DNA of 61,701 bases from Methanomicrobiales archaeon (GCA_035517575.1 DATIYO010000012.1:1-61701), one strand, 5' to 3'; positions 35,450 to 57,690 are shown, counted from the first letter of the stretch. Notes: generated from the letters alone by a model not told the origin. Made by a program: numbers and translations.

Positions 35450-35453
35450 CGGG

Positions 35454-38450: not shown

Positions 38451-38511
38451 CCGTCTTCCCGCTGGCGCCCGTGGGAACTATTTAAGGAGGGCGCGAAAGA
38501 GATCATACTGG

Positions 38512-39573: not shown

Positions 39574-40037
39574 TCGCGGGGGTCGCGACGAAGGCCCTGA
39601 AGGCCATCTGCGACGAGCGCGGGAGGCTCATGGAGATCCTCAGGGCAGACGACCCGATGTTCGCGGGGTTCGGGCAGGTCTACCTCACCACGACGTACCC
39701 CGGGGTGGTGAAGGCCTGGCACCTCCACCGGCGCCAGACGGACGTGGTCTGCTGCATAAAGGGCGAGATCCAGCTCGTCCTCCACGACCCCCGCGACGGC
39801 TCGCCGACCCGGGGCGAGGTGGACGAGTACCGCCTCGGGGAGGGCAACCCCCTCCTCGTCTCCATCCCGCCGGGCGTGCACCATGGCTGGAAGTGCGTCT
39901 CGCCCGGGGAGGCCTTCGTGATCAACATCCCCGACAAGCCCTACCGGCGCGAACAGCCCGACGAATACCGGCTCCCCCCCGACTCGGGGGAGGTCCCGTA
40001 CCGGTGGGTCCTCACCCCCGGCCTCAGGCACGGGTGA
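39570..40037 (+). CDS. rmlC: dTDP-4-dehydrorhamnose 3,5-epimerase-like cupin
   Basis: The tail of track ORF 39162..40037 starts at GTG 39570 (GTGA overlap with the rmlA stop). The sequence reads DERGRLMEIL...GQVYLTTTYPGVVKAWHLHRRQTD...IPPGVHHGW. Confidence 0.7.
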   Translation: MIAGVATKALKAICDERGRLMEILRADDPMFAGFGQVYLTTTYPGVVKAWHLHRRQTDVVCCIKGEIQLVLHDPRDGSPTRGEVDEYRLGEGNPLLVSIPPGVHHGWKCVSPGEAFVINIPDKPYRREQPDEYRLPPDSGEVPYRWVLTPGLRHG

Positions 40038-40040
40038 CCC

Positions 40041-40985
40041 ATGCGCATCCTCGTCACCGGCGGGGCCGGTTTCATCGGGAGCAACTTCGTCCGCTACCTG
40101 CTCGCGCACCACCCCCGCGACGAGGTGGTGGTCCTCGACAAGCTCACCTACGCGGGCCGGCTCGAGAACCTCGAGGGCACGATGGACCGTATCACCTTCC
40201 TCGCGGGGGACATCACCGAGCCCCGCCATGTCGAGCGGGTCGGGTCCTGCGACGCCATCGTGAACTTCGCGGCCGAGACCCATGTCGACCGGTCCATCGC
40301 CGACGCGGGCGTCTTTGTCAAGACCGACGTGATCGGGACCTTCGTCCTCCTCGAGTACGCGAGGAGGGAGGGGGTCGGGTCCTACCTCCAGGTGAGCACC
40401 GATGAAGTGTACGGGAGCCGGAAGACCGGATCCTTCACCGAGGCCGATCCCGCCGACCCCTCCTCGCCCTACTCGGCGAGCAAGGCGGGCGCCGACCACC
40501 TCGCCCTCGCCTACTTCAAGACCTACGGCCTCCCGGTCCGGATAACCCGCTCGTCCAACAACTACGGCCCGTACCAGTACCCCGAGAAGCTCATCCCCGT
40601 CATCGTCATCAGGGCCCTCCGGGGCGAACCCCTCCCCATCTACGGGAAGGGTGAGAATATCCGGGACTGGCTCTACGTCGAGGACAACTGCTCCGGCATC
40701 GACACCGTGCTGCGGAAGGGGCGGGCCGGCCAGGTGTACAACATCGCGTCGGGTGAGGAGCACCGGAACATCGACGTTGCACGCCTGGTCCTCTCCCTGA
40801 CGGGGAGGCCCGAGAGCCTCATCAGCTTCGTCGCGGACCGGCCGGGGCACGACCTCCGGTACTCCATCACCACGGCGAAGGTCCGGAAGCTCGGCTGGCG
40901 GCCTGCCCGCTCCTTCGAAAAAGGCATGGAGGACACCGTGGCCTGGTACCGCGCGAACGAGGCCTGGTGGGGGCCGCTCGTGTGA
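40041..40985 (+). CDS. rmlB: dTDP-glucose 4,6-dehydratase
   Basis: Motifs are MRILVTGGAGFIGSNFVRY, FAAETHVDRS, STDEVYG, YSASKAGADHL and SNNYGPYQYPEKLIP. Confidence 0.9.
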   Translation: MRILVTGGAGFIGSNFVRYLLAHHPRDEVVVLDKLTYAGRLENLEGTMDRITFLAGDITEPRHVERVGSCDAIVNFAAETHVDRSIADAGVFVKTDVIGTFVLLEYARREGVGSYLQVSTDEVYGSRKTGSFTEADPADPSSPYSASKAGADHLALAYFKTYGLPVRITRSSNNYGPYQYPEKLIPVIVIRALRGEPLPIYGKGENIRDWLYVEDNCSGIDTVLRKGRAGQVYNIASGEEHRNIDVARLVLSLTGRPESLISFVADRPGHDLRYSITTAKVRKLGWRPARSFEKGMEDTVAWYRANEAWWGPLV

Positions 40986-41052: not shown

Positions 41053-42171
41053 ATGAATATCCCCGCGGCGAAGATCTACTTTCCACCGGAGGACCGGCGG
41101 GATCTTGCACAGCAGATCGAGGGAATCCTCGCGAGCGGCCAGCTCACCCTCGGGAAGTACGGGAAGGAGTTCGAGGAGCGCTTCGCGGAGTTCACCGGCA
41201 CGGCCCATGCCGTCTGCGTGAACAGCGGGACCTCGGCCCTCGAGATCATCCTCCGCTCCCTCGGGGTGAAGGACGCGACGGTCATCGTCCCGACGAACAC
41301 CTTCTTTGCCACTCCCGCCTCGGTCATCCACGCGGGCGGACGGGTCAGGTTCGTGGACGCGAGCCCGAACCTCGACATGGACCCCGCGGCCGTGGACCGG
41401 GCCATCGACCGGACCACGAAGGGGGTCATCCTGGTCCACATCGGCGGGGCCGTCGCCCCCCAGGTGCGGGAGATCCGCGAGATCTGCGGGGACCGCGGCC
41501 TCTTCCTCGTCGAGGACGCCGCCCACGCCCACGGGAGCACCCTCGGGGGGAGGAAGGCGGGGTCCTTCGGCGTCGCGGGGGCCTTCTCCTTCTACCCCAC
41601 GAAGGTGATGACGAGCGGCGAGGGGGGCATGATCACGACCGACGATAAGAAGCTCTATGACCAGGCGCTCGTCCTGAGGGACCAGGGGAAGGCGGGCTTC
41701 CTCGGCAACATCCACACCGGCATGGGCTACAACTGGCGGATGAGCGAGATCCATGCCGCCATCGGCCTCTCCCAGTTCAGGAGGCTCGGGGAGTTCATCG
41801 CGGCACGGCGGCGGATCGCCGCCATTTACGACAGGGAGCTCGCGGGCATCCCGGACATCACCCCCATCCCCGTCGACCCCTCGGGGGAGTCCAACTACTA
41901 CAAGTACTGTGCGCTCCTCGCGGACGGGAAGGACCGGGCGGCGGTGAAGAAGGAGCTCAGGGAGAAGCACGGCGTGAGCCTGTCGGGGGAGGTGTACGAA
42001 CTCCCCTGCCACCTCCAGCCCGTCTTCAAGGAGGGCGGGGGCCCGGGCGAGGGGCAGTTCCCCGTGGCAGAGGACCTCTGCCGGAGGCATGTCTGCCTCC
42101 CCGTGTACGCGACCATGAAGGATGAGGAGGCAAGGTACGTGACAGACGCGTTGAGGAAGGTGCTCGCATGA
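41053..42171 (+). CDS. DegT/DnrJ/EryC1/StrS-family PLP sugar aminotransferase (copy 2)
   Basis: Motifs are GTSALEI, VEDAAHAHGS and FSFYPTKVMTSGEGG. It is clearly paralogous to copy 3 (46881..47987), and both share CHLQP near the C-terminus. Confidence 0.85.
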   Translation: MNIPAAKIYFPPEDRRDLAQQIEGILASGQLTLGKYGKEFEERFAEFTGTAHAVCVNSGTSALEIILRSLGVKDATVIVPTNTFFATPASVIHAGGRVRFVDASPNLDMDPAAVDRAIDRTTKGVILVHIGGAVAPQVREIREICGDRGLFLVEDAAHAHGSTLGGRKAGSFGVAGAFSFYPTKVMTSGEGGMITTDDKKLYDQALVLRDQGKAGFLGNIHTGMGYNWRMSEIHAAIGLSQFRRLGEFIAARRRIAAIYDRELAGIPDITPIPVDPSGESNYYKYCALLADGKDRAAVKKELREKHGVSLSGEVYELPCHLQPVFKEGGGPGEGQFPVAEDLCRRHVCLPVYATMKDEEARYVTDALRKVLA

Positions 42172-43070
42172 CGATCCTCGTCACCGGCGGCTCGGGGTTC
42201 ATCGGGTCCCACATCATCGACCAGCTCCTCGCGAAGGGCGAGGACGTGGTCATCTTCGACTTCGTGCAGCCCAGGTACTGGAAGTCGGTCAAGCACTTCT
42301 ACGGGAGCATCCTGAACCTGGACGAGCTCGAGCGGGCGATGCAGGGCGTGGACGTCGTCTACCACCTCGCGGCCATCGCCGACGTGAAGGACGTCTTCGA
42401 GCACCCGCACTACTCCGAGCGGGTGAACACCTCGGGCACCCTGAACGTCCTCGAGGCGGCGAGGAAGATGGGGGTCGGGCGGGTCATCTACGGGAGCACG
42501 GACTGGGTCTACCAGACCACCGACTCCGAGTCCGTGGACGAGACGACGCCGATCAGGACGCCCGCCCACCTCTACTCGTCGACCAAGCTCGCCTCGGAGT
42601 TCTACTGCCAGAACTACGGGGACCTCTACGGCGTGAAGTACACCATCCTCCGGTACGGCATCCCCTACGGCCCGAGGGCGAGGCCGGGGGCCATCGTCCC
42701 GATCTTCGTCGATAAGGCCCTGAAGGGCGAGGAACTCACCATCGCGGGCGACGGCGGCCAGTTCCGGCAGTTCATCTACGTCGAGGACCTCGCCGCGGGG
42801 AACGTGGCCGCCCTCCAGAAGGTCGCCGAGAACAAGATCTACAACCTCGACGGCCAGCGGCCCGTCACGGTGAAGGAGGTGGCCGAGGCGGTGATGAAGA
42901 TCATCGGGAAGGTCGGCATCAGGTACGTCCCCTCGAGGCCGGGGGACTTCCGGGGCAGGAAGGTCTCCTCCGAGAAGGCGAAGAAGGAGCTCGGCTGGGA
43001 GGCCACGACGCCCCTCGAGGAAGGGATCAGGAAGTACCTGGCATGGCTGAAGGCGACCGGCCAGGCCTGA
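42168..43070 (+). CDS. NAD-dependent epimerase/dehydratase (UDP-hexose 4-epimerase-like)
   Basis: Motifs are MTILVTGGSGFIGSH, YSSTKLASE and RYGIPYGPR. The ATGA overlaps the upstream stop. Confidence 0.8.
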   Translation: MTILVTGGSGFIGSHIIDQLLAKGEDVVIFDFVQPRYWKSVKHFYGSILNLDELERAMQGVDVVYHLAAIADVKDVFEHPHYSERVNTSGTLNVLEAARKMGVGRVIYGSTDWVYQTTDSESVDETTPIRTPAHLYSSTKLASEFYCQNYGDLYGVKYTILRYGIPYGPRARPGAIVPIFVDKALKGEELTIAGDGGQFRQFIYVEDLAAGNVAALQKVAENKIYNLDGQRPVTVKEVAEAVMKIIGKVGIRYVPSRPGDFRGRKVSSEKAKKELGWEATTPLEEGIRKYLAWLKATGQA

Positions 43071-43169
43071 TGAGCCGGATGCAGGACCGGGCACGGCCAC
43101 GCACGGCGGCGGGGGCCACGGGGAACGGCCCCGCTCCCCGCGGGCTCCCGGCAGGGGGATGAACCGGGG

Positions 43170-44261
43170 ATGAACACCCTTTTTCCGTCGATATCCTCGA
43201 ACCGCGAGCGGGACTATAACCGGGTCACCGGCCGGCTCGGGGCCATGGCGTACGAGCTGAAGCGGGGGAACCTGGTCCCCCACCTCGTGGACCGGATCAA
43301 GTGGAACCTCGCGCCGCGGCTCCACCACGTCGTCGGGTTTCCCACCCACGCCGACATCGAGACCGCGGTGAGCTGCCAGATGAGCTGCCCGATGTGCAGG
43401 CGCCGGCAGATGCCCGCGGACCTCCTCCAGGGGCTCATGGACTTCGGCCTCTTCAGGAAGATCATCGACGAGTGCGCGGAGAGGGGCCTCTACTCGGTGA
43501 AGCTCTCCTGGAGGGGGGAACCCCTCCTCAACCCCGACATCGCCGCCATGGTCCGGTACGCGAAGGAGAAGGGCATCCGGGACGTGGCGTTCCTCACGAA
43601 CGGCGAGCGGCTCACCAGGGAGATCTCCGCGGCGCTCGTCGACGCGGGCCTGGACTGGATCAGCATCTCCGTTGACGGCACGGGGGCGACCTACGAACGG
43701 ATCCGGTCCCCGTCGACCTACAAGGGGATCGTGGAGAAGGTCACGGCCCTGAAGGAGATCCGGGACGAGCGGGGCCGGACAAAACCCCTCATCCGGGTCC
43801 AGACCATCTACGGCGCTATCCGGGACAACCCGTCCGAGTACTTCGGCTTCTGGGAGAAGGTCGCGGACAAGGTGTACATCATCGCCGACCAGGGGCGGGC
43901 GACCGCGGCGAAGTTCCCCCGGGACCGGAACTACGCCTGCCTGGAGCCGTGGCGGAGGATCGTCATCGGCTGGAACGGCCTCGTGCCGCAGTGCATCTGC
44001 GACTACGACGACAGGAACCCGCTCGGCGACGTGAACCGCGAGAGCATCCATGCCATCTGGCATGGGAAGAGATTCAACGAGCTGCGTGCATCCCTCCTCA
44101 GGGGCGATCTCTTCATGAACCAGGTCTGCTGCGACTGCCACGATACGGGAGTCATGTACGAGAAGAAGATACACATCGGGGATCGGGAGATGACCATCGG
44201 GCTGTACCAGGGGCAGGAGCTCGACCTCGCCACCCTCGGGAAGCAGGAGCCCTCGCCATGA
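43170..44261 (+). CDS. Radical SAM protein with a SPASM/twitch-like C-terminal domain (paralogue of 27811..28788)
   Basis: The CX3CX2C motif CQMSCPMC lies at nt 43374-43397. WRGEPLLNPDIAAMVRYAKEKG follows, then the auxiliary motif CLEPWRRIVIGWNGLVPQC (Cx12Gx4C) and CCDC. Confidence 0.85.
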   Translation: MNTLFPSISSNRERDYNRVTGRLGAMAYELKRGNLVPHLVDRIKWNLAPRLHHVVGFPTHADIETAVSCQMSCPMCRRRQMPADLLQGLMDFGLFRKIIDECAERGLYSVKLSWRGEPLLNPDIAAMVRYAKEKGIRDVAFLTNGERLTREISAALVDAGLDWISISVDGTGATYERIRSPSTYKGIVEKVTALKEIRDERGRTKPLIRVQTIYGAIRDNPSEYFGFWEKVADKVYIIADQGRATAAKFPRDRNYACLEPWRRIVIGWNGLVPQCICDYDDRNPLGDVNRESIHAIWHGKRFNELRASLLRGDLFMNQVCCDCHDTGVMYEKKIHIGDREMTIGLYQGQELDLATLGKQEPSP

Positions 44262-44923
44262 AGGTGCTCGTCATCGCCCCCCACATGGACGACGAGGTGC
44301 TCGGGGCCGGGGGCACGATTGCCCGCCACGTGGCTGACGGCGACGACGTCACCGTCTGCATCGTCGCGCACCGGGTCTACGGGCACCGGTTCGACGAGAA
44401 GAAGAACCGGGTCGAGGTCGCGTGCGCGAACTCGGCGAGGAAGGTGCTCGGCTACCGGAAGACGACGTTCCTCGACCTTCCCGATGAACGGCTCGACGGG
44501 TGCCTCCAGGAGGTCCTGATCGGGCTCGAGAAGCAGCTGGAGAAAACCGGCCCGGAGGTCGTCTATGTCCCCCACCGGGGCGACATCAACCAGGACCACC
44601 GCGCCGTCTTCCAGGCGGCGATGATCGCCCTCCGGCCCCACGCGAGCCCGGGGGTCCGCCGGGTCCTCTCGTACGAGGTCCCCTCCTCGACCGACCAGGC
44701 ACCCCCGTTCCCCGAGTATGCCTTCCTCCCGAACTGCTACGTGAACATCGCGGACTTCCTGGAGAAGAAGCTCGAGGCCTTCCGCTGCTACCGGACCGAG
44801 GCGCGCCCCTTCCCCCATCCCAGGTCCGACGAGGGGCTCGCCACCGTGGCGAGGAAGCGGGGCACGGAGTCGGGGTTCCCCGCCGCCGAGGCCTTCGTCA
44901 TCGTGAGGGACCACCGGGCCTGA
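44258..44923 (+). CDS. PIG-L/LmbE-family N-deacetylase
   Basis: The tail of track ORF 43949..44923 starts at ATG 44258 (ATGA overlap). Motifs are MKVLVIAPHMDDEVLGAGGTI and HRGDINQDH. Confidence 0.8.
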   Translation: MKVLVIAPHMDDEVLGAGGTIARHVADGDDVTVCIVAHRVYGHRFDEKKNRVEVACANSARKVLGYRKTTFLDLPDERLDGCLQEVLIGLEKQLEKTGPEVVYVPHRGDINQDHRAVFQAAMIALRPHASPGVRRVLSYEVPSSTDQAPPFPEYAFLPNCYVNIADFLEKKLEAFRCYRTEARPFPHPRSDEGLATVARKRGTESGFPAAEAFVIVRDHRA

Positions 44924-44927
44924 TCCC

Positions 44928-45989
44928 ATGATCACCACCTGCTTCCGGGCCGATGCCTCCGTCGGGGTCGGGACCGGGCACCTCATGGAGTGCCTGACCC
45001 TCGCGGAGTCCTTCGGCCGGACCCTCTCCTCGGGCTCCCTCTTCCTCGTGAACGGGTTCGGGCCGGCCACGAGAGCCATCGGGGAGAAGGGGTACCCGTG
45101 CCGGATCGTGCCCGCGGGGATGTCCCAGGGAGAGGAAGCGGCGTGGGTCACGGAGACCGCGGGGGAGGCGGGGGCGAGGCTCATCGTCTGCAGCCTGCTC
45201 GGGCGGGACGATTCCTTCTACCGTGCCCTCAGGAGAAAAGGGGCCACCGTCCTCGCCATCCTCGACGATGCCGGCCCCACGCCGGTCCCCGCTGACCTCA
45301 TGGTGAACTTCAGCGTCCTCCAGGACGAGTCCCTCTACCGCCGGTACGGGGGCTCGGGCACCCGGTTCCTCCTCGGGCCGCGGTTCATGCCCATGGGGGA
45401 GGAGTTCCACGGCTACTGGTCCCGCCGCCGGCCGGTCCCCGAGGTCGCGGGGACGATCTTCGTGAACCAGGGCGGGAGCGACCCCTTTGGCCTCACCGCG
45501 AAGATCCTCCGCGCCCTCGAGCTCCTCGACCTCCCCCAGGAGATCGTGGTCGTCGTCGGGAGCGCCGTCACGGACGCCCACCGGCGGGAACTGAAGGCCA
45601 TCGGGAAGGAGTCGGGGAACACGTACTCGTTCGCCTGGGGGGTCACCCCGCGGGAGATGGGGGAGATCATGGACCGGTCAGACCTCGCCGTCACGGCCGC
45701 GGGGAACACCCTCTACGAGCTCGCCATCTTCGGGGTCCCCTCGATCATCGTCTCCCACCACGAGCGCCACCTCGCGGTCGCGGAGCGGTTCGCGGCGCTG
45801 GGGGCCGGCGTGAACCTGGGCATCGGCCCCACCCTGCCCGGGGCGGAGATCGCCCGGGCGGTCGGGAGGCTGCTCGGGTCGAGGGAGGAGCGGCAGGCCC
45901 TCTCGGACCGGATGAAGGGGATCGGGGACGGGCTCGGCTGCCAGAGGATCGCGGAGGCGGTGAAGTCGCTATGGCAAGGATCTTCCTGA
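44928..45989 (+). CDS. pseG: PseG-like UDP-sugar hydrolase (GT28-like fold; SpsG/PseG family)
   Basis: CFRADASVGVGTGHLMECLTLAE is the PseG N-terminal signature. NQGGSDPFGLT and a C-terminal GT-B half are also present. Confidence 0.65.
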   Translation: MITTCFRADASVGVGTGHLMECLTLAESFGRTLSSGSLFLVNGFGPATRAIGEKGYPCRIVPAGMSQGEEAAWVTETAGEAGARLIVCSLLGRDDSFYRALRRKGATVLAILDDAGPTPVPADLMVNFSVLQDESLYRRYGGSGTRFLLGPRFMPMGEEFHGYWSRRRPVPEVAGTIFVNQGGSDPFGLTAKILRALELLDLPQEIVVVVGSAVTDAHRRELKAIGKESGNTYSFAWGVTPREMGEIMDRSDLAVTAAGNTLYELAIFGVPSIIVSHHERHLAVAERFAALGAGVNLGIGPTLPGAEIARAVGRLLGSREERQALSDRMKGIGDGLGCQRIAEAVKSLWQGSS

Positions 45990-46897
45990 CCGGCGGGAGC
46001 GGGTACCTCGGGGGCGCCCTCCTCGGCGCGCTCCCCCGCGGCTGGGAGGTGGTCGCCCTCGGGAGGCGGCCGCCCGCGGGGAAGCTCCCTCCGTCGGTCC
46101 GGTTCGTGGCGGGCGACCTCGTCTCCCCCGACTGGGACCCGTCGGCGGTCGGGGGATGCGACGCGATCCTCCACCTCGCCGCCGTGAAGGGGGCGGACTC
46201 CTGCGCGGACAGTCCCTCCGAGGCCGTCGAGGTGAACGTCCTCGGGACCCACCGGCTCATCCGCGCCGCGCTCGCATACCGCGTCCCGCGGTTCGTCCTC
46301 GCCTCCACGTACTGGGTGTACGGCGGGCGGGCCGAGCCCCCCTTCGGCGAGGAGATGCCGGTCGCCCCCGAGGAGCTGTACGGGCTCACCAAGGCCGTCT
46401 CGGAGCTGGAGCTCGCCGGTTCGGGTCTCGACTACACGATCCTCCGGTTCGCGAACATCTTCGGGCAGGGGGCGGGGACCGGCCGCGAGGAGGTGGTCTT
46501 CCACTTCGTGACGAACGCCCTCAGGGGCGACCCCGTCAGGATCGACGGGGACGGGAGCCAGGAACTGGACTTCATCGATGTCGCGGACGTGGCAGGGGTC
46601 CTCGCGGCCGTGACCATGGACCCGAGGGCGTCCCGCCAGGTCTTCAACATCGGGTCCGGCCGGCCCGTGAGCATCCTCGACCTCGCGAACCGGATCCGGG
46701 CCATCGTCGGGGAGATGCGGGGCGCGGAGGTGCCGGTCGAGCGGCGGGGCCCGCCCGCTCCCCGCAGGGTCCGGCGGTTCGTCTCGATGGAGAAGTTCGG
46801 GAGGGCCTTTCCCGAGGTCCGCCTGACCCCGCTCGACGAATCCCTCAGGAGATACACCGCGATCCGGGAGGCTGAACTGCATGGTACAGGTCGCTAG
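45971..46897 (+). CDS. NAD(P)-dependent SDR epimerase/reductase (RmlD-like features)
   Basis: Motifs are MARIFLTGGSGYLGGAL, ASTYWVYGG and YGLTKAVSE. It overlaps pseG by 19 nt. Confidence 0.7.
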   Translation: MARIFLTGGSGYLGGALLGALPRGWEVVALGRRPPAGKLPPSVRFVAGDLVSPDWDPSAVGGCDAILHLAAVKGADSCADSPSEAVEVNVLGTHRLIRAALAYRVPRFVLASTYWVYGGRAEPPFGEEMPVAPEELYGLTKAVSELELAGSGLDYTILRFANIFGQGAGTGREEVVFHFVTNALRGDPVRIDGDGSQELDFIDVADVAGVLAAVTMDPRASRQVFNIGSGRPVSILDLANRIRAIVGEMRGAEVPVERRGPPAPRRVRRFVSMEKFGRAFPEVRLTPLDESLRRYTAIREAELHGTGR

Positions 46898-47987
46898 GCC
46901 TTATTTCAGGGACAGGGAGAAGATCCTCGGGAGGATCGCGAAGATCCTCGAGTCGGGCAGGCTGATGAACGGCGAGAACACCGCGGCCTTCGAGGCGGCC
47001 TTTGCCCGCACCTGCGGCGCGCGGCACGCCGTCTCCGTGAACTCCTGCACGACGGCCCTCGAGATCACCCTCCGCTCCCTCGACCTCCGCGGGGGCGAGG
47101 TGATCGTACCCGTGAACACCTTCATCGCGACCCCGAACTCGGTCATCTTCGCCGGCGGGAAACCCGTCCTTGCCGAGGTGAAGGAGGGGTCGTACAACCT
47201 CGGCATCGACGAGGTCCAGGAGAAGATCGGGCCCGCGACCCGCGCGGTCATCGCGGTCCACATCGCGGGGGTCGTCTGCGAGGACATCCTCGCGATCCGG
47301 AAACTCTGCGACGAATCGGGGGTCGCGCTCATCGAGGACTGCGCCCACGCGGTGGGGGCGACCCTCGGCGGGAGGATGGCGGGGACCTTCGGGCTCGCCG
47401 GCTGCTTCTCCTTCTACCCGACGAAGGTCATGACGACGGGGACCGGCGGGATGATCCTCACGGGGTCAGACGAGCTGGACGCCTTTGCGCGGAGCGCCCG
47501 GCTCCATGGCGCGAGCGGGAAGGGCACGAGCGAGATCGTGAACGTCGGGAACGACTGGTTCATGGACGAGATCCGGGCGGCGCTCGGCATCGGCCAGCTG
47601 GAGGACCTGGACTTCCAGCTCCGGCGGAGGAGGGAGGTGGCGAAGGCCTACCGGGCCCTGGTCGGCGAGCTCGACGGGTTCTCCTGCTTCCCGCTCCCGA
47701 AGGGATCGGTCCCCGCCTGGTACAAGTTCCCGGTCCAGGCAGGGGAGACCGTCCACCTGCCCCGCCTGAAGCAGCGGGCCTCTGAGAAGTTCCAGCTGGA
47801 GCTCGAGGCGGTTTACTGGCCGACCTGCCACCTCCAGCCGTATTACCGGCGGCTGTTCGGGTTCCGCGAGGGGGATTTCCCGACGAGCGAGGCGATCCTC
47901 TCGCGGCAGGTCTGCCTCCCGATCCACGGGCTCGTGACCGACGAGGACATCCACCAGGTGGCGGCGGCCGTGCGGGGCTCCCTATGA
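46881..47987 (+). CDS. DegT/DnrJ/EryC1/StrS-family PLP sugar aminotransferase (copy 3)
   Basis: Motifs are CTTALEI, IEDCAHAVGA and FSFYPTKVMTTGTGG. It overlaps the upstream SDR by 17 nt. Confidence 0.85.
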   Translation: MVQVARPYFRDREKILGRIAKILESGRLMNGENTAAFEAAFARTCGARHAVSVNSCTTALEITLRSLDLRGGEVIVPVNTFIATPNSVIFAGGKPVLAEVKEGSYNLGIDEVQEKIGPATRAVIAVHIAGVVCEDILAIRKLCDESGVALIEDCAHAVGATLGGRMAGTFGLAGCFSFYPTKVMTTGTGGMILTGSDELDAFARSARLHGASGKGTSEIVNVGNDWFMDEIRAALGIGQLEDLDFQLRRRREVAKAYRALVGELDGFSCFPLPKGSVPAWYKFPVQAGETVHLPRLKQRASEKFQLELEAVYWPTCHLQPYYRRLFGFREGDFPTSEAILSRQVCLPIHGLVTDEDIHQVAAAVRGSL

Positions 47988-48706
47988 TGGTCGGGATCCA
48001 CCAGCCCATGTACCTTCCCTGGCTCGGGTACTTCGACAAGATCCACCGGTGCGACACCTTCGTGATCCTCGACGACGCCGCTTACTCCCGGAATTACTTC
48101 GTCAACCGGAACCGGATCAGGACCAGGGAGGGCTGGATGTGGCTCACGGTCCCCGTACGTTCCAGCGGCCGGTTCGGGCAGCCCATCAACCAGGTCGAGG
48201 TGGACCAGGGCAGGCGCTGGCAGGCCAGGCACTGGCGGAGCATCGGCTACTCGTACGGGAACGCCCCCTTCTTCGGGGAGTACTCGGCGTTCTTCGAGGA
48301 GTTCTACGCGGGGGACCATGCCCGCCTCCAGGCGGTGCTCATGGATCCCCTCAGGTTCCTCCTGGAGTCCCTCGGCATCGGGACGAGGATCCTCCTCTCC
48401 TCCGAGCTCGGGGTGAAGGGCACGAAGGACGAGCGCCTCCTCGCCATCTGCCGCGAGCTCGGGGCCGACTCCTACCTCTCTGGCCCGTCGGGGAAGGACT
48501 ACCTGGACCCCGTCCCCTGGGAGGCCGAGGGCATCGCGGTGCACTTCCACGACTACCGCCACCCCGTGTACCCCCAGGTCCAGGGCGGCGACTTCGTCCC
48601 CGAGATGTCGGTGATCGACCTCCTCTTCAACTGCGGCGGGGACAGCCTCCGGGTCCTCACCGAATCCCAGCCGGACTACGGGGCGAAGGCCGCGGGGGGT
48701 GCCTGA
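47984..48706 (+). CDS. WbqC-family protein
   Basis: MMVGIHQPMYLPWLGYFDKIHRCDTFVILDDAAYSRNYFVNRNRI is the characteristic WbqC N-terminus. The ATGA overlaps the upstream stop. Confidence 0.7.
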   Translation: MMVGIHQPMYLPWLGYFDKIHRCDTFVILDDAAYSRNYFVNRNRIRTREGWMWLTVPVRSSGRFGQPINQVEVDQGRRWQARHWRSIGYSYGNAPFFGEYSAFFEEFYAGDHARLQAVLMDPLRFLLESLGIGTRILLSSELGVKGTKDERLLAICRELGADSYLSGPSGKDYLDPVPWEAEGIAVHFHDYRHPVYPQVQGGDFVPEMSVIDLLFNCGGDSLRVLTESQPDYGAKAAGGA

Positions 48707-49770
48707 TGACGTCCGCCGACGAGCGGATCAGGGCGCTCTTCGCGGGGGAAGACCACGTCTTCCTCATCGCCGAGGCAGGCTGCAACTACGAGGGGGACTT
48801 CGCCCGGGCGGAGGAGATGGTCAGGGCCGCGGCAGGGGCGGGCGCCGATGCCATCAAGTTCCAGACCTTCGTCCCCGAGCGGCTCGTGACGAGGGACGCG
48901 CCCAAGTTCTGGGACATCGAGGGGTGCCCGGGGGCCACCCAGTTCGAGGAGTTTGCACAGACCCCCCAGCTCGTCGAGGCCCAGTACCGCGCCCTGAAGC
49001 GGATCGCAGACGAGGAGGGGATAGTCCTCTTCTCGACGCCCTCGGACGAGAGCTCGGCCGACATGCTCGACGCGCTCGGCCTCCCCCTCGAGAAGATCAG
49101 CTCCATGGACATCACCCACCTCCCCCTGATCCGGCACATCGCGCGGATGGCGAAGCCCGTCATCCTCTCCACGGGGGCCTCGACCATGGACGAGATCCGC
49201 GAGGCGGTGACCGCCATCGAGGGGGAGGGGAACGACCGGATCGCCCTCCTCCACTGCATCACGAGCTACCCCACGCGGCCGGAGGACGTGAACCTGAACA
49301 TGATGAAGGCCATCATGGAGGAGTTCCCCGGATATCCGGTGGGCTACTCGGACCACACGACGATGCCCGAAAGCACGGGGGTGATCACGGCGGCGGTTGC
49401 CCTCGGGGCCCGGGTCATCGAGAAGCACTTCACCTTCGACCGCACCCGGCCGGGGTACGACCACGCGATATCGGCCGATTACCATGATCTCGCCGAGATG
49501 GTGAGGCAGATCTCCTTCACCCGCGGGCTCCTGGGGAGCGGCGTGAAGGCCCCCGTCGGCGCCGAGGAGCGGGCCCGGGCCTGGGCGCGGAGGAGCGTCG
49601 TCGCCCGGGTCCCCATCCCCCGCGGGACGCGGATCACCGGGGAGATGCTCGTCGTCAAGCGGCCGGGCACGGGGATACCCCCGAAGCATCTCGAAGGCCT
49701 CGTCGGCAGGGTGGCGGCCGTGGACATCGCCGGGGACCAGGTGATCACCTGGGAGATGATCGGCCGGTGA
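48706..49770 (+). CDS. NeuB-family nonulosonic acid synthase (NeuB/PseI/LegI/SpsE-like) with a SAF domain
   Basis: The tail of track ORF 48049..49770 starts at ATG 48706, overlapping the WbqC stop by 1 nt. Motifs are FLIAEAGCNYEGDFARAEEMVRAAAGAGADAIKFQTF, ILSTGAS, LLHCITSYPT and GYSDHT. The SAF C-terminus reads RSVVARVPIPRGTRIT...KRPGTGIPP. Confidence 0.85.
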   Translation: MTSADERIRALFAGEDHVFLIAEAGCNYEGDFARAEEMVRAAAGAGADAIKFQTFVPERLVTRDAPKFWDIEGCPGATQFEEFAQTPQLVEAQYRALKRIADEEGIVLFSTPSDESSADMLDALGLPLEKISSMDITHLPLIRHIARMAKPVILSTGASTMDEIREAVTAIEGEGNDRIALLHCITSYPTRPEDVNLNMMKAIMEEFPGYPVGYSDHTTMPESTGVITAAVALGARVIEKHFTFDRTRPGYDHAISADYHDLAEMVRQISFTRGLLGSGVKAPVGAEERARAWARRSVVARVPIPRGTRITGEMLVVKRPGTGIPPKHLEGLVGRVAAVDIAGDQVITWEMIGR

Positions 49771-49813
49771 CCCGCCGGGGCAGGGGGCGGAGAGGGGGAG
49801 CGAGGTTCCCGTC

Positions 49814-52408
49814 GTGAAGGTCGTCGCCGTCATCCAGGCGCGCATGGGCTCGCGGCGGCTGCCCGGGAAGTCCCTGATGGAGATCGGGGGCATCCCCCTC
49901 CTCCGGTACGTCATCGAGCGGGTGAAACAGGCAAAGACCGTCGGGAGGGTCGTCCTCGCGACGAGCACGGCGCCCGAAAACGACCCGCTCTGCACCCTCG
50001 CGGAATCCCTCGGCATCGGCGTGTACCGCGGTTCGGAGGAGGACGTCCTCTCGCGGTTCAGGGAGGTCGCGCGGGAGACCGGCGCGGACCTCGTCGTCAG
50101 GATCTGCGCCGACAACCCGCTCGTGGACGGGGGGGAGATCGACCGGGTCGTCGATCACCACATCCGGACCGGATCGCAGTACTCCTTCAACCATGTCCCG
50201 ACCTGCAGGAACCGGTACCCCGACGGGCTCGGCGCCGAGGTGATCAACGCCGACCTCCTCGCGGCTCTCGATCCGGCCTCCCTCACGCCCGAGGACCGGG
50301 AGCATGTCACCGTCAGGTTCAGGAAGCCTGCGGCCGGGATCTCCGTCGGCGAACCCGGGGCACCCGCGGAGATCCTCGGGCCGGACATCAGGCTCGACAT
50401 CGACACTTCCGACGACTTCGGGCGGATGAAGGGCTTCATCGAGTCCCTGCCGGGAGAACGGAGCCCGTCCTGGACCGCGGAGGAGATCGTCCGGTCGTAC
50501 CGTGCATACTTCGGGAGCAGGGTGATCGTCCTCCTCGGCAGCGGGGAAGATGCGCGGGCCTACTGCTCCCGCTACCAGGGAAAGATCGCGGGCGGGATCC
50601 CCCTCGTCGCATCGCCAGGGGCCTGGTGGGAGCTCGAGAAGCGGGGGATCCCCTGCCTCCTCATCCAGGACTGCTTCGACCGGATGGAGATCTACCGGCT
50701 CGGCATGGAGAATTACCGCAAGGCCGAACAGGTCTGCAGGGCCGTGGATGGGGCGCTCGGAAGGTCGCCCGGGAAAAAGGACGGCGCGGTCGGGCTCCAC
50801 CACCTCGAACCGGCGATGGCCGACTTCTGCCAGGTGAAGTTCCTCCTCGACAATCTCAGCATCAGGGCGAACCTCCTCGGTAAAATCGCGCAGCGGGAGC
50901 GGCCCGACCTCGTCGTCGTCGTGGTCAACCCCGAAGACCAGGAACCTCTCAACCAGAACCCCGACGCGTACCTGGGGGACGAGTGCAACTGGTTCCCCGC
51001 TCTCCTTGAACTCGGGGCAGGCGGGTGCCGGTTCACGACCCTCGAGTATCATGAGGGCGGGAAACAGGGCACCGGGACGGCGCCCCTCACCTCGGGGCAG
51101 GGACGGCTGCGCGATGTCCTCACCCGCTCGGCCATCCTCCATCCCGTCCTCTATACCCTCAGGTTCCACGGATTCTGGAGAGCTCTTCGGGTCCTGCCCT
51201 CGTCCATCATGAACCGGCTCCGGCGCGGGAGGACCCTCCTCCTCCTCGGTTTCGGGTACGACTGGAACCGGATGCTTCCGGAGCTCTCGCTCAGGGGCTA
51301 TTCCGTCCACCCTCTTCTCCCGGAAGAACCTGCAGACGGAGAAAGGGTACCCGTCGATACCTCGTGGGAAGAGGAGGCGAGGCCGCTTCTCCTCTCGGGC
51401 GGGGTCGACCTCTCGCCCCCGATCTTCTCCTACCTTGCCCTCAGGCTGGAGAAGACCCTGGGGGGCATTCCCGGGTGGGTCGAACAGGTGAGGCAGGCCG
51501 TCGGGTCGGCCGGGCCGCTCGCGCTCCTCTCGGGGCCGCGGCAGATGGCGAGGGAGCAGCTCGTCGCGGGGATCGCCCGCTCGCACGGGGTGCCGGTGGT
51601 CACCTGGCAGCACGGGGCCTACGGCGCCCACCGCGCGCCCGTCATGCTCTACACCGAGTTCATGAACTCCGACGTCGTCCTCCTCTGGGGGAGCGGGGTG
51701 AAGGAGACGATGGGGAAGGACGAGCTCAACCGCTTTCCCTGCCGCATGGAAGCCGTCGGGTCCTGCGAACTCCAGGAACTCTACCGCAACCGAAAGGTGA
51801 AGCCTCGCGGGGGGCCGGTCCTCTACGCGACCACCGGATACTACGGGAACGAGCTCTACGTGAGCTACGAGTATCCCGTCCATGACAACGAACTCTGGGC
51901 GACCCAGAAGGCGATCATCGATGCGCTGGGGAACCGGCAGCCTGCCGTCGTCAAGCTCCACCCGTCGGCGAAGGACCAGGAGCAGTTCGAGGGGTTCATC
52001 CGGATGCGCGGGTACCGGAACCTCGCCGTGGCTCACGGGGCGGAGGTGACTTTCACCGGGTACCTGGAGAGGGCCGGAGCGGTGATCATCGACCTGCCCA
52101 CGGGGACGACGCTCCTCCAGGCGATCGCGTCGGGAAAGCCCGTTTTTGTCCTGACGAAATACCTGTCCTTCCTCCCCGAGGCGCTGGAGCTCCTGAAGAA
52201 GCGGGCCTTCTGCAGCCCCGATATCGGGGAGTTCACCGGCCTCGTGGCGGCGTACCTCGAGGGGAAGCCGCTGGACCAGAGCCCGGATCCGGAAAACACC
52301 GCGTTCCTCGAGAGGTACGGGATCGGGAAACCCGACGGCGGGGTATCGGAGCGGGTGCTCGGGGTCCTCGCGGAACCGGGCAGAAAGGCCGGGCCCCGTT
52401 CACCGTGA
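49814..52408 (+). CDS. Fusion protein: an N-terminal SpsF/COG1861-type cytidylyltransferase plus a ~620-aa uncharacterised KLHP-motif (GT-B-like) domain
   Basis: The GTG start gives MKVVAVIQARMGSRRLPGKSL...RICADNPLVD...RLDIDTSDDF (about aa 1-235). An uninterrupted frame then runs to aa 864. It carries VVKLHPS (nt 51953-51964) and AVIIDLPTGTTLLQAIASGKPVFVL. Confidence 0.7.
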   Translation: MKVVAVIQARMGSRRLPGKSLMEIGGIPLLRYVIERVKQAKTVGRVVLATSTAPENDPLCTLAESLGIGVYRGSEEDVLSRFREVARETGADLVVRICADNPLVDGGEIDRVVDHHIRTGSQYSFNHVPTCRNRYPDGLGAEVINADLLAALDPASLTPEDREHVTVRFRKPAAGISVGEPGAPAEILGPDIRLDIDTSDDFGRMKGFIESLPGERSPSWTAEEIVRSYRAYFGSRVIVLLGSGEDARAYCSRYQGKIAGGIPLVASPGAWWELEKRGIPCLLIQDCFDRMEIYRLGMENYRKAEQVCRAVDGALGRSPGKKDGAVGLHHLEPAMADFCQVKFLLDNLSIRANLLGKIAQRERPDLVVVVVNPEDQEPLNQNPDAYLGDECNWFPALLELGAGGCRFTTLEYHEGGKQGTGTAPLTSGQGRLRDVLTRSAILHPVLYTLRFHGFWRALRVLPSSIMNRLRRGRTLLLLGFGYDWNRMLPELSLRGYSVHPLLPEEPADGERVPVDTSWEEEARPLLLSGGVDLSPPIFSYLALRLEKTLGGIPGWVEQVRQAVGSAGPLALLSGPRQMAREQLVAGIARSHGVPVVTWQHGAYGAHRAPVMLYTEFMNSDVVLLWGSGVKETMGKDELNRFPCRMEAVGSCELQELYRNRKVKPRGGPVLYATTGYYGNELYVSYEYPVHDNELWATQKAIIDALGNRQPAVVKLHPSAKDQEQFEGFIRMRGYRNLAVAHGAEVTFTGYLERAGAVIIDLPTGTTLLQAIASGKPVFVLTKYLSFLPEALELLKKRAFCSPDIGEFTGLVAAYLEGKPLDQSPDPENTAFLERYGIGKPDGGVSERVLGVLAEPGRKAGPRSP

Positions 52409-54529: not shown

Positions 54530-54566
54530 CCGGTGTCCCCATGAACCGGCCGCGGCGGTGTCCCTG

Positions 54567-55442
54567 ATGGCAGACCCACTCACCCGGGTGGAGTTCACGC
54601 ACCTCGACAAGGTCCTCTACCCCGCGGCGGGGATCAGGAAGCTCGAGGTGGTCAGGTACTTCATCCGGATGGCCCCGCGGATGCTCCCCTTCCTCAAGGG
54701 CCGGCCCATCGTCCTCACGCGATACCCCGACGGGGCGGGGGCGAAGGGCTTCTACGAGAAGGACGCGCCGATGGGGACCCCCGACTGGGTCGAGACCTTC
54801 GCCCACTGGTCCGAGACGGCGGAGCGGACGGTCCACTTCATCGTCTGCAACAACCTGGACACGCTCCTCTGGATCGCGAACCTCGACGCCCTGGAGATCC
54901 ACATGATCCTCGCCCCGACCCGCACCCCCGGGAACCCGGACCTCCTCTTCATTGATCTGGACCCCGAGCCGCCGGCGACCACCGCCGACGCGGCCAGGAT
55001 CGCCCTCCTGGTCCGGGACCGGCTCGCCTCCCAGGGCGTGCGGATCTCCGTGAAGACGTCGGGGAAGCGGGGCTTCCACATGGTCGTCCCCCTCGTCCCG
55101 GGCCTCACCTATGCCGAGGTCCGGGGCTTCGTCCACGCGATGGGGCGCGAGCTCGCCCGGGAGGACGCCCTCGTCGCATCCGAGGCGCCCGGCCCCTCGA
55201 ACCCGGGGAAGGTCTTCGTCGACTACGGCCAGAACAGCCACGGCCGGACCATGGTCGCCCCCTACAGCCCCCGCGCCACCCCCGCGGCGACGGTCTCCGC
55301 GCCGGTCTCCTGGGAGGAGGTGGGCAAAGGGATAAACCCCGGTGACTTCCATATCAGGAGTGTCCCCGAGCGGCAGGAGGACCCCTGGGAGGGCATCCTC
55401 CGGCACCGGCAGGGACTGCCCGGAGGAGGGAGGCCCGGTTGA
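54567..55442 (+). CDS. NHEJ polymerase/primase (LigD Pol domain, archaeo-eukaryotic primase superfamily)
   Basis: This is track ORF 54558..55442, which starts at GTG. The alternative ATG is at 54567. The sequence reads LTRVEFTHLDKVLYP...RYPDG...FYEKD...DLDP...KTSGKRGFHMVVPL...VDYGQN. Confidence 0.8.
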   Translation: MADPLTRVEFTHLDKVLYPAAGIRKLEVVRYFIRMAPRMLPFLKGRPIVLTRYPDGAGAKGFYEKDAPMGTPDWVETFAHWSETAERTVHFIVCNNLDTLLWIANLDALEIHMILAPTRTPGNPDLLFIDLDPEPPATTADAARIALLVRDRLASQGVRISVKTSGKRGFHMVVPLVPGLTYAEVRGFVHAMGRELAREDALVASEAPGPSNPGKVFVDYGQNSHGRTMVAPYSPRATPAATVSAPVSWEEVGKGINPGDFHIRSVPERQEDPWEGILRHRQGLPGGGRPG

Positions 55443-56293
55443 AGAAGGAGAAGAAGGGCGTCGCGGCCGGGACCGCGACCGCGGAACCGAAGGTCGAGGA
55501 GGCGAGGCCGGCTGAGAGGAAGACCCCGCGGCCCATCTGGAGCGGCGCGGTGAGCATCGGCCTCGTGAACGTGCCGGTCAAGGCCTACCCGATGACCCGG
55601 GACCTCGCGGTGCACTTCCACCTCCTCCACCGGAAGGACGGCCAGCCCCTCAGGTACGAGCGGGTCTGCACCCGCGACGGCGTGGTGGTCCCCTGGGAGG
55701 AGACCGTGAAGGGGTACGAGGTGCGGAAGAACGAGTTCATCGTCCTCGAGAAGGAGGAGCTCCGGGCCGCCCTCCCCGAGTCCGACAGCCGGATCCGGAT
55801 CGACAAGTTCGTCCACTACCTCTCCCTCGACCCCGTGTACTTCGAGAACTCCTTCGTCCTCGTCCCCGACGGGGTGCCCGATGCCTACGCCCTCCTCTTC
55901 ACCGTCTGCCAGGAGCTCGGCGAGGCGGGGGTCGGCCGCTTCACCATGCGGACGAAGGAGTACCCCGCGGTCGTCCACGCGTACCACGGCGCCCTCATCC
56001 TCACCACCCTTCGGTACGCGAACGAGGTCATCGATCCCGCGAGTTTCGGGGAGCTCGCGGGCCTCGCGGCCCCGGCAGGGAAGCAGCTCGATCTCGCGAA
56101 GAAGATCATCACGGACCTCACGGGCGAGCTCGACATCTCCGAGTACCACGACACCTACCGCGAGCGGGTCCTCGCCATCATCGAGAAGAAGCGGTCGGGG
56201 GAGACCATCCGGGTGGAGAAGCCCAGGGCGGCCGAGGTGAAGGAGCTCATGGCCGCCCTCGAGGAGACCGTCGCGAAGCTCGGGAAGCAATGA
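55439..56293 (+). CDS. ku: Ku DNA-end-binding protein
   Basis: The start is TTG 55439, which overlaps the Pol stop and is preceded by ggaggagggagg. Motifs are RPIWSGAVSIGLVNVPVKAY, VVPWEETVKGYE, FVLVPD and AVVHAYHGALILTTLRYANEV. Confidence 0.85.
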   Translation: MKKEKKGVAAGTATAEPKVEEARPAERKTPRPIWSGAVSIGLVNVPVKAYPMTRDLAVHFHLLHRKDGQPLRYERVCTRDGVVVPWEETVKGYEVRKNEFIVLEKEELRAALPESDSRIRIDKFVHYLSLDPVYFENSFVLVPDGVPDAYALLFTVCQELGEAGVGRFTMRTKEYPAVVHAYHGALILTTLRYANEVIDPASFGELAGLAAPAGKQLDLAKKIITDLTGELDISEYHDTYRERVLAIIEKKRSGETIRVEKPRAAEVKELMAALEETVAKLGKQ

Positions 56294-57690
56294 CCCCCCG
56301 CTACCGCCCGATGCTCGCCCGCACCGCCGAGGCCCCCTTCTCGTCGCCCGACTGGATCTTCGAGGTGAAGTGGGACGGGATCCGGGCCATCGCGTACGCG
56401 GGGGAGGCCCTCTCTCTCCTCTCGCGGAACGGGACCGAGATGGCCGGCCGGTTCCCCGAGCTCCGCGAGATCCTGGAACTCGCGCCCGGCTGCGTCCTCG
56501 ACGGCGAGATCGTCCTCCTCCACGAGGGGACGAACGACATGCAGGCCCTCCTGGGCCGGTTCCAGGAGACCGACCCGCGCGAGATCGAGGCAGACTCCCT
56601 CGCCCTCCCCGTGACCTACGTCGCCTTCGACATCCTGGAGAAGGACGGGAAGCCCCTGGTCCGCCTCCCCCTCGAGGAGCGGCTGGGGATCCTCGGGGAG
56701 AGCGTGGAGGAGGGGAAGTACCTGGTCCGTTCCATCGCCGTGCGGGGTGAGGGGGAGCGGTACTTCGCCGAGGTGGTGAAGCGGGGCCTCGAGGGGGTGA
56801 TGGCGAAGCGCCTGGGGACCCCGTACGAACCCGGGGCGAGGAGCGACTCCTGGCTGAAGGTGAAGGCCGTGAAGACCCTCGACGGGGTGGTCTTCGGGTA
56901 CACGAGGGGCGCAGGGGCGCGGGCGGGGAGCTTCGGCGCCCTCGTCCTCGGGCTCTGCGACGGGGGCGAGGGGGTGTACATCGGCAGGGCGGGGACCGGC
57001 TTCGACCAGGCCGACCTCGGGAGCATCCTCGCCGCCCTCGCGCCCTTCCGGTCGGAAACCCCGACCCTCCAGGGAGCGGAACCCGGCGAGATCACCTGGG
57101 TCCTCCCGCGCATGGTCGTCGAGGTCGCCTACCACTCGGTGACCCGGGAGGGGCGGCTCCGCATGCCCCGGTTCATCAGGGTCCGGACCGACAAGGCACC
57201 TGCGGACTGCACCCCCGACCAGCTCGGCACCGCCCGAAACCTTCTTCCGTACCAGGGGAAGAGAGACTTCACCATGACGCCCGAACCGCGGGGGAAGAAG
57301 GCGGAGGCACCTGCGGGGAACTCCTTCGTCGTCCACGAGCACCATGCGAGGCACCTCCACTTCGACCTCCGGCTGGAGCGGGACGGGGTGCTCAAGTCCT
57401 GGGCGGTCCCGAAGGGCATCCCCGAAGCGACGGGGGAGAAGCACCTCGCCGTGCATGTCGAGGACCATCCCCTCGAGTACGGGACCTTCCAGGGGACCAT
57501 CCCCGAGGGGGAATACGGGGCGGGGACCGTCTCGATCTGGGACTCGGGGACGTACGACACCCTCGTCTGGAAGGAGGACAAGGTGGAGGTGGTCTTCCAC
57601 GGGAACCGGCTCCATGGACGGTATGCCCTCGTGAAGTTCAGGCGGGCCGGGGACAAGGACTGGCTTTTATTGAAGGCCGGCGACGACTGA
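56290..57690 (+). CDS. ATP-dependent DNA ligase (LigD ligase domain) fused to a C-terminal 3'-phosphoesterase (PE) domain
   Basis: The ATGA overlaps the ku stop. Ligase motif I is EVKWDGIRA (adenylation Lys codon 56368-56370). Other ligase motifs are VAFDIL, EGVMAKR, WLKVK and RMPRFIRVRTDK. The PE domain reads YQGKRDFTMTPEP...FVVHEHHARHLHFDLRLE...SWAVPKG...HPLEY. Confidence 0.85.
   Translation: MTPRYRPMLARTAEAPFSSPDWIFEVKWDGIRAIAYAGEALSLLSRNGTEMAGRFPELREILELAPGCVLDGEIVLLHEGTNDMQALLGRFQETDPREIEADSLALPVTYVAFDILEKDGKPLVRLPLEERLGILGESVEEGKYLVRSIAVRGEGERYFAEVVKRGLEGVMAKRLGTPYEPGARSDSWLKVKAVKTLDGVVFGYTRGAGARAGSFGALVLGLCDGGEGVYIGRAGTGFDQADLGSILAALAPFRSETPTLQGAEPGEITWVLPRMVVEVAYHSVTREGRLRMPRFIRVRTDKAPADCTPDQLGTARNLLPYQGKRDFTMTPEPRGKKAEAPAGNSFVVHEHHARHLHFDLRLERDGVLKSWAVPKGIPEATGEKHLAVHVEDHPLEYGTFQGTIPEGEYGAGTVSIWDSGTYDTLVWKEDKVEVVFHGNRLHGRYALVKFRRAGDKDWLLLKAGDD

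Follow-up and report, generated by a model that had tools for sequence, protein, structure and literature searches.

The DNA analysed here (hereafter the window) is the whole of a 61,701-nucleotide (nt) stretch from a contig of a Methanomicrobiales metagenome-assembled genome (GCA_035517575.1, DATIYO010000012.1:1-61701). It carries a gene in which a cytidylyltransferase and a 629-residue domain of the glycosyltransferase-B (GT-B) fold are joined in one reading frame. Sequence comparison and a structure model suggest that the product is probably a soluble bifunctional cytidine monophosphate (CMP)-nonulosonate synthetase and transferase, which would perform the final two cytoplasmic steps in a glycosylation pathway for a sugar resembling pseudaminic or legionaminic acid (Pse/Leg). 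The gene and its parts, with coordinates counted from the first letter of the window and residues (aa) numbered on the full-length protein, are as follows.

49787..49806, plus strand: purine-rich stretch GGCGGAGAGGGGGAGCGAGG, 8-27 nt 5' of the GTG, read from the sequence
49814..52408, plus strand: fusion gene, GTG start, 864 aa plus stop (ORF listing and translation)
49814..50449, plus strand: cytidylyltransferase domain, aa 1-212, SpsF/KdsB type (PF02348; alignment with PDB 6oew)
50450..50518, plus strand: junction or linker, aa 213-235, PGERSPSWTAEEIVRSYRAYFGS (compared with the separate genes of loci L004 and L006)
50519..52405, plus strand: C-terminal domain, 629 aa, GT-B fold, LIC12162-like (AlphaFold2 model, Foldseek, family models)
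51605..51616, plus strand: WQHG, aa 598-601
51758..51763, plus strand: G649-S650
51953..51964, plus strand: KLHP (HP motif), aa 714-717
52091..52111, plus strand: D760-L-P-T-G-T-T766, a Ser/Thr-rich helix N-cap

In every domain of life, surface glycans are capped by nonulosonic acids (sialic, pseudaminic and legionaminic acids), and the known transferases for sugars of the bacterial type are few; in 2018 the archaeal legionaminic-acid transferase was stated to be unidentified (PMC6137143). Both domain families of the fusion are already known, and the protein carries loose database labels such as 'NTP transferase domain-containing', 'glycosyltransferase family protein' and 'SpsF'. What is new is that a synthetase-transferase fusion is recognised as natural and recurrent, together with the mainly archaeal distribution of the subfamily and the functional inference for an uncharacterised family. 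A literature search of incomplete coverage found no paper on a natural synthetase-transferase fusion, in keeping with a reading of the DNA made earlier from its letters (the sequence-only reading), according to which such fusions are known as engineered constructs and no natural archaeal enzyme of this kind is known to have been characterised.

A single reading frame encodes both domains

The window is ~69% G+C, at which long open reading frames (ORFs) arise by chance, so ORF length alone is no evidence for a gene. An antisense ORF (49745..52036, minus strand, 763 aa) overlaps the fusion gene; it was rejected, having no Pfam or family match and the wrong codon-position G+C. The plus-strand frame is preferred because of its codon-position G+C (0.67/0.46/0.89), its continuous third-position G+C (GC3) and the lack of a family match on the antisense side, and all domain matches and homologues belong to it. 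GC3 stays at 0.79-0.95 per 300-nt interval throughout the gene. The sequence-only reading had described one uninterrupted 864-codon frame from the GTG at 49814 and had named 50450-50650 as the place where a frameshift or stop might split it. The ORF listing, translation and GC3 bear out the continuous frame, with no sign of a frameshift across the junction, and the peptides quoted in that reading all occur in the translation where it placed them.

The GTG start is supported because aa 1-10 align with the N terminus of PDB entry 6oew. The gene calls of two homologues, P0002 and P0003, begin 10 residues later and thereby probably truncate the N-terminal motif. The GGCGGAGAGGGGGAGCGAGG stretch is a possible ribosome-binding region, to judge from its purine-rich composition and position. 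The protein is identical to database entry P0001, 'NTP transferase domain-containing protein [Methanomicrobiales archaeon]', and no transmembrane segment is predicted in it.

The N-terminal domain is an SpsF-like cytidylyltransferase

The N-terminal domain matches Pfam PF02348 (CTP_transf_3) at 84.5 bits (gathering cut-off 22.6, E=1.2e-23). Its nearest solved structure is 6oew, a Leptospira cytidylyltransferase whose specificity is not assigned (E=1.5e-24 over aa 1-210). The stretches QARMGSRRLPGK (aa 8-19), CADNPLVD and RLDIDTSDD fall on the corresponding 6oew motifs; the domain thus has the A-R-x-x-S-x-R-L-P-x-K nucleotide-binding motif, D-x-P, D-x-D and full-length coverage of the fold. These matches confirm the SpsF-like cytidylyltransferase that had been proposed for the N terminus. 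Its weak scores against the PseF and KdsB equivalog models, given below, place it in the SpsF-like branch and, being under the equivalog thresholds, leave its substrate to be read from the context. In Bacillus subtilis, the SpsF-type cytidylyltransferase gene spsF is required for the use of legionaminic acid but not for its synthesis (PMC7439481).

The C-terminal domain has a GT-B fold and belongs with LIC12162-like proteins

A word-indexed protein search, whether with the C-terminal domain alone or with an 83-sequence alignment, returned only four proteins, the window protein included; of its three relatives, two are fused and one, P0004, stands alone at 616 aa. An exhaustive profile search of representative clusters found 1272 at E<=1e-3, of which 251 reach E<=1e-30, mostly stand-alone proteins of 600-660 aa. 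With the 83-sequence alignment, AlphaFold2 gave a model of the domain with a mean predicted local distance difference test score (pLDDT) of 93.4 and a predicted template-modelling score of 0.93, replacing a run on a four-sequence alignment that had reached a pLDDT of 41. Foldseek found 56 matches to this model in the PDB at E<=1e-3, and nearly all of those listed are GT-B enzymes with probability 1.0, among them BshA, MurG and many UDP-glycosyltransferases; the CDP-bound polysialyltransferase 5wcn ranks seventh (E=5.8e-6). The region is therefore confidently predicted to be GT-B, as the sequence-only reading had supposed, and a confident non-transferase fold was not obtained. The model also has an extra N-terminal region of ~330 residues.

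Family models were scanned against a sample of 51 family members. TIGR04331 (LIC12162 family transferase) was matched by 38 of them and NF046086 (BFO_1060 family glycosyltransferase) by 34, the latter over its C-terminal 140-160 model positions; 13 matched TIGR04396. Six members exceeded the 22.1-bit gathering score of Glyphos_transf (TagF-like, PF04464), P0051 at 32.2 bits and P0096 at 26.3 bits among them, and the polysialyltransferase model (PF07388) and Capsule_synth were each matched by one. KpsC/S-type models also appear among the remote profile matches of family members. Remote links to transferases with cytidine-nucleotide donors, anticipated earlier from short motifs, are thus found in profile matches to nonulosonate-transferase, TagF-like, polysialyltransferase and KpsC/S-type models. 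Precomputed annotation assigns PF27859 (LIC12162) to P0002, P0003, P0004 and P0005 and weakly to P0019, with none recorded for P0001. The sequence-only reading had called this part ~620 aa without a named family: the length holds, at 629 aa, whereas the lack of a family does not, given PF27859 on close homologues and the weak TIGR04331 match of the window protein itself. The NCBIfam scores fall far under the curated cut-offs (see below), so the domain belongs to a separate subfamily rather than to those families. By these comparisons it would be a distinct, mostly archaeal subfamily among the GT-B enzymes with cytidine-nucleotide donors. A literature search on TIGR04331 found nothing relevant.

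Three family members of 870-877 aa (P0081, P0091 and P0110) have N-terminal extensions of ~240-260 aa that match no Pfam family and are not cytidylyltransferases; these may be another fusion partner.

Conserved motifs of the C-terminal domain

Conservation was counted in the 83-sequence alignment (A2). Its most conserved histidine is H600 of WQHG (W 79/83, Q 80/83, H 81/83, G 81/83), which follows model strand E360-363 and is, by analogy with TagF, a candidate catalytic base. The only (near-)invariant pair is G649-S650 (G 83/83, S 81/83). KLHP (K 82/83, P 73/83) sits after strand E476-479, which is second in the C-terminal Rossmann half of the model, and in profile alignments it coincides with 'lHlnP', a stretch that binds the nucleotide in UDP-GlcNAc 2-epimerases. 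Downstream, within AVIIDLPTGTTLLQAIASGKPVFVL (aa 756-780), lies D760-L-P-T-G-T-T766 (D 81/83, T765 81/83); the family consensus there is D-F-P-S-T-T, relative to which the window protein has a one-residue insertion, and the segment is predicted to contact the CMP phosphate. Further conserved residues are Y671, N679, D691, Q698 and R797. All of these motifs and residues are present in the window protein. At 35 positions conservation reaches at least 85%, and the window protein keeps all but two of these, both conservative changes.

The HP motif with a Ser/Thr-rich turn after it, on which the sequence-only reading had relied, is therefore conserved across the family. The weight that it gave to KLHP needs correcting in one respect: the motif is conserved, but the most conserved histidine is that of WQHG. 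The bacterial sialyltransferase motif set, as relayed in PMC5420450 from Freiberger et al. 2007, includes HP and D/E-D/E-G, and the HP motif is present here as K714-L-H-P717. A QxxxKD motif was not found in the C-terminal domain. H600, D691, H716 and T765 are candidate functional residues.

The fusion gene closes a nonulosonate operon

The fusion gene is the last of a co-directional operon and lies 43 nt after the end (49770) of a gene for a NeuB-family synthase with a SAF domain, so the placement directly after NeuB given in the sequence-only reading holds. The genes before it are listed here.

41053..48706, plus strand: co-directional pathway genes before NeuB, comprising the next eight entries
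start 41053, plus strand: PseC/LegC-like aminotransferase
start 42168, plus strand: short-chain dehydrogenase/reductase (SDR) dehydratase/epimerase
43170-44261, plus strand: radical SAM/SPASM enzyme
start ~44258, plus strand: PIG-L deacetylase
start 44928, plus strand: PseG-like hydrolase, weak Epimerase_2 match
start 45971, plus strand: SDR
start 46881, plus strand: second aminotransferase
start 47984, plus strand: WbqC-like
48799..49770, plus strand: NeuB-family nonulosonate synthase plus SAF domain (PF03102, E=6.7e-77; the 48799 start is provisional)

The NeuB gene product scores 310 bits against TIGR03569 and 233 bits against the PseI model, both under their cut-offs. Still further 5' lie genes for an aminotransferase, a GT2 enzyme, a sugar-1-phosphate nucleotidyltransferase and RmlB. 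The sugar of the operon is predicted to be a Pse/Leg-like diamino nonulosonate. The radical SAM/SPASM gene is kept in orthologous operons, and its product is 59% identical to a homologue from locus L005 of Hadarchaeum.

The fusion recurs and derives from adjacent genes

A scan of reference genomes with an eight-sequence alignment as query found 27 related loci, mostly in Methanomicrobiales, Methanoregula, Methanospirillum, Methanosarcinales, Methanoperedens, Hadarchaeum and Bathyarchaeia, with a few bacterial. A NeuB and/or cytidylyltransferase homologue lies within 8 kb in 16 of the 27, many of the contigs being short. The sequence-only reading had taken the fusion to be natural and had pointed to related genomes as the place to look for it; it recurs there on independent contigs and assemblies. 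The fused orthologue P0002 is on two contigs and P0005 in a 263-kb contig, each with the same operon order before it; P0003 is on one contig, and P0019 is on 13, where the operon is rearranged. A cluster-mate of P0005, WP_321352006.1 (P0153), labelled 'glycosyltransferase family protein' in RefSeq, lies on a 3.17-Mb Methanoregula contig, and in the Methanoregula locus L029 a fused orthologue stands behind the same NeuB operon.

In L004 and L006, a cytidylyltransferase gene lies directly 5' of a LIC12162-like gene, co-directional and as a separate ORF. Compared with these, the linker PGERSPSWTAEEIVRSYRAYFGS keeps the SP-W-T-EEI tail of stand-alone cytidylyltransferases and then passes directly into the C-terminal domain's first strand, with ~12 residues of the cytidylyltransferase tail and ~35 of the transferase leader gone. 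The comparison suggests that the fusion arose from two adjacent genes. In a quick neighbour-joining tree (without support values) most fused proteins fall together and one of them, P0051, lies in a distant clade; its separate position suggests a second fusion event, and the fusion probably arose at least twice.

The stand-alone P0004 (L001, 6520-14179, minus strand) adjoins a different ulosonic-acid-type pathway, with genes for a NeuB without SAF domain, a KdsC-like phosphatase, an SIS isomerase, a transaldolase, a transketolase, a class IV aminotransferase and a separate cytidylyltransferase. Because of this neighbourhood, the donor sugars probably differ within the family.

A bifunctional enzyme is the favoured reading

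In the mechanism that we propose, the N-terminal domain would condense the nine-carbon acid made by the adjacent NeuB synthase with CTP, giving the CMP-sugar and pyrophosphate. The C-terminal GT-B domain would hold this CMP-sugar in its C-terminal Rossmann half, with the KLHP histidine (H716) and the D-x-P-S/T-T helix cap at the CMP phosphate, and would pass the sugar to an acceptor hydroxyl, the base or nucleophile being either the WQHG histidine H600 or one of the conserved acids, for example D691. The acceptor would probably be a glycan intermediate on a lipid carrier (dolichyl phosphate) or some other surface glycoconjugate. Being fused, the two domains would link the activation of a labile CMP-sugar to its transfer. 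A single polypeptide for activation and transfer is also what the sequence-only reading had suggested, and those of its elements that computation could address were borne out. We infer the first step from the domain family and the logic of the operon, and the second from the fold and motifs together with remote homology and the neighbouring genes; the substrates, the acceptor, the roles of H600, H716, D691 and T765 and any channelling between the sites are likewise predictions.

Several observations weigh against this assignment. The N-terminal domain is far under the equivalog thresholds of PseF, NeuA and KdsB (PseF TIGR03584, 27.9 bits against a cut-off of 205.7; KdsB TIGR00466, 31.4 against 155.2), and the glycan island contains another, divergent cytidylyltransferase gene at a distance of 22 kb. 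With TIGR04331 the window protein reaches 18.8-19.6 bits (E=5e-4) and the individually examined relatives 17-35 bits, against a cut-off of 225; none of the relatives exceeds 52.9 bits with NF046086, whose cut-off is 200, and the window protein matches neither NF046086 (E<=1e-3) nor Glyphos_transf. The HP histidine is kept in only 69 of the 83 aligned sequences. The D/E-D/E-G sialyltransferase motif is absent from the C-terminal domain, the nearest segment being W-G-S-G-V in the window protein and F-G-[ED]-G-V in the family consensus. The functions ascribed to the subfamily come from computation, and the enzyme roles are predicted ones. Finally, the closest matches of the C-terminal domain are UDP-GlcNAc 2-epimerases: 4zht is the top Foldseek match (E=5e-7) and 6vlb the only PDB profile match at E<0.1 (E=0.0099), and the PDB sequence and profile searches, which found such epimerases weakly, returned no TagF, sialyltransferase or Kdo (3-deoxy-D-manno-oct-2-ulosonic acid)-transferase.

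The Foldseek matches keep alive a reading in which the C-terminal domain transfers nothing and is instead a hydrolysing 2-epimerase (NeuC/LegG-like) or nucleotide-sugar hydrolase acting earlier, so that the fusion joins two biosynthetic steps; a further point in its favour is that none of the operon genes was recognised as a canonical NeuC/LegG. We consider it quite improbable. The similarity is limited to a generic nucleotide-binding strand and loop, the C-terminal domain is ~250 residues longer than the epimerases, and none of the 51 members matches Epimerase_2 at E<=0.01, whereas transferase-named families are matched by most; moreover, the operon already has a PseG-like hydrolase, itself the gene with the weak Epimerase_2 match. 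A TagF-like phosphotransferase, or another CDP- or CMP-dependent transferase moving a polyol phosphate or other acidic sugar made by the fused cytidylyltransferase, would account for the six members above the Glyphos_transf gathering score and for the layout of the WQHG and KLHP histidines, which resembles that of TagF, and it would sit well with the variation in donor suggested by P0004. This is rather unlikely, since the N-terminal domain is a CTP_transf_3 protein (KdsB/NeuA/SpsF) and not of the TagD/IspD type, the gene closes a NeuB operon whose layout is kept in orthologues, and nonulosonate-associated families are matched by more members than TagF is.

The C-terminal domain might be a polymerase that builds a nonulosonate-rich homo- or heteropolymer rather than a capping enzyme that adds a single residue, as the polysialyltransferase links (5wcn in Foldseek, PF07388 in one member), the profile links to TagF-type polymerases and the large extra N-terminal region would allow. 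The closest genetically studied relatives, those of Tannerella, add a single terminal residue (PMC5420450). We consider a polymerase unlikely; the present data do not discriminate between single transfer and polymerisation. That the fusion is a sequencing or assembly artefact, a stop codon having been lost between two genes of the kind that are separate in L004 and L006, is hardly credible: the fused form occurs in independent assemblies and lineages, the 3.17-Mb Methanoregula contig and the 13 contigs of P0019 among them, GC3 is continuous over the junction, and the clean loss of ~12 tail and ~35 leader residues is not a single-base event.

The bifunctional synthetase-transferase has wider consequences if it is correct. 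A 'Rosetta-stone' fusion, together with a conserved neighbourhood in many methanogens and other archaea, gives a testable function to a family of 1272 clusters, and the fusion is a concrete candidate for archaeal nonulosonate transferases. A broader proposal is that the mostly archaeal LIC12162-like subfamily represents the missing archaeal nonulosonic-acid transferases and a new CAZy-type family, with the fusion reflecting direct hand-over of the CMP-sugar between sites; we would give it slightly less than an even chance. In practical terms, the fusion could, if the assignment is true, supply one-polypeptide catalysts for the chemo-enzymatic synthesis of nonulosonosides.

Comparison with known systems

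TagF has two conserved histidines, one in each half, and the C-terminal domain of the fusion shares this arrangement. TagF and TagB (PF04464) are modified GT-B enzymes with a cytidine-nucleotide donor, as is predicted for the fusion, and the PF04464 matches of the six family members span from just after WQHG to the PSTT motif. TagF, however, moves a phospho-alcohol and not a glycosyl group, the window protein itself lacks a PF04464 match, and no TagF structure is among the top 50 Foldseek matches of the C-terminal model. Engineered CMP-Neu5Ac (N-acetylneuraminic acid) synthetase-sialyltransferase fusions from Neisseria join NeuA and GT52 parts with the synthetase N-terminal. The present protein likewise has the synthetase first and would combine activation and transfer on one polypeptide; unlike the engineered ones, it is natural, archaeal and recurrent, and it is built from SpsF-type and LIC12162-like parts.

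With the bacterial GT-B (poly)sialyltransferases of GT38, GT52 and GT80 and the beta-Kdo or Pse transferases of GT99, GT107 and GT118, the fusion has in common the HP motif and a CMP-ulosonic-acid donor, the latter predicted. It differs from them in having neither D/E-D/E-G nor QxxxKD in the C-terminal domain, in that this domain is ~250 residues longer and in that the similarity is at the level of the fold only. Closer parallels come from two bacterial groups. In Tannerella forsythia, knock-outs of BFO_1060-family relatives (Tanf_01245 / TFUB4_00887) lose the terminal Pse/Leg derivative of the O-glycan (PMC5420450). These NF046086 transferases resemble the fusion in their predicted GT-B/TagB-like fold, an HP motif in the C-terminal half and an adjacent CMP-Pse/Leg pathway; they are ~445 aa long, bacterial and without a fused cytidylyltransferase, and the D/E-D/E-G motif reported for them is the one that the fusion lacks. 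The LIC12162 family of Leptospira O-antigen regions is associated with sialic-acid-type biosynthesis genes (PMC6679464). This family (TIGR04331/PF27859) is of similar size (585 model positions) and shares the gene association, whereas the branch of the fusion is separate, mainly archaeal and cytidylyltransferase-fused; the LIC12162 family is itself uncharacterised.

Other genes of the glycan island

The surrounding 30 kb form one large surface-glycan island, with genes at 21755-36323 on the minus strand and 36472-40985 on the plus strand, including those for a UDP-glucose dehydrogenase, SDRs, methyltransferases, a GT2 enzyme, a sugar-1-phosphate nucleotidyltransferase and RmlB. Four of its members are listed.

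27071-27985, minus strand: second cytidylyltransferase, PseF-like (PF02348, E=5.7e-9; PseF-like, E=4e-15)
30716-31930, glycan island: NanM-like sugar O-methyltransferase
31974-33431, glycan island: Wzx-like flippase
33560-35515, minus strand: second large KLHP protein, 651 aa, no Pfam match

The second cytidylyltransferase gene stands in a minus-strand cluster with genes for a haloacid dehalogenase (HAD) hydrolase, a methyltransferase, SDRs and a 2-hydroxyacid dehydrogenase, and clusters of similar make-up occur alongside the fused gene in L029 and L030. The products of the island may serve to activate two different acidic sugars. The 651-aa protein has KLHP followed by a Ser-rich turn (CKLHPFLP ... 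VYSTSSSCMDALAVGVPV) and matches TIGR04326, 'LIC13510 family surface carbohydrate biosynthesis protein', at E=2.8e-25 (88.7 bits against a cut-off of 250). It aligns weakly with the HP region in the family of the fusion (hhalign E=0.014), and to judge from these motifs it may be a second HP-motif GT-B transferase of the island. An ORF of 496 aa at 32010-33500 on the plus strand, rich in Asp, Glu, Gly, Arg and Pro, is not a gene but an antisense shadow of the flippase gene, and this pairing accounts for a local peak in GC and AT skew at 32-34 kb. Directly 3' of the island, at 54558-57690 on the plus strand, lies a complete non-homologous end-joining set: a LigD primase-polymerase, Ku and an ATP-dependent ligase that carries a fused LigD phosphoesterase domain.

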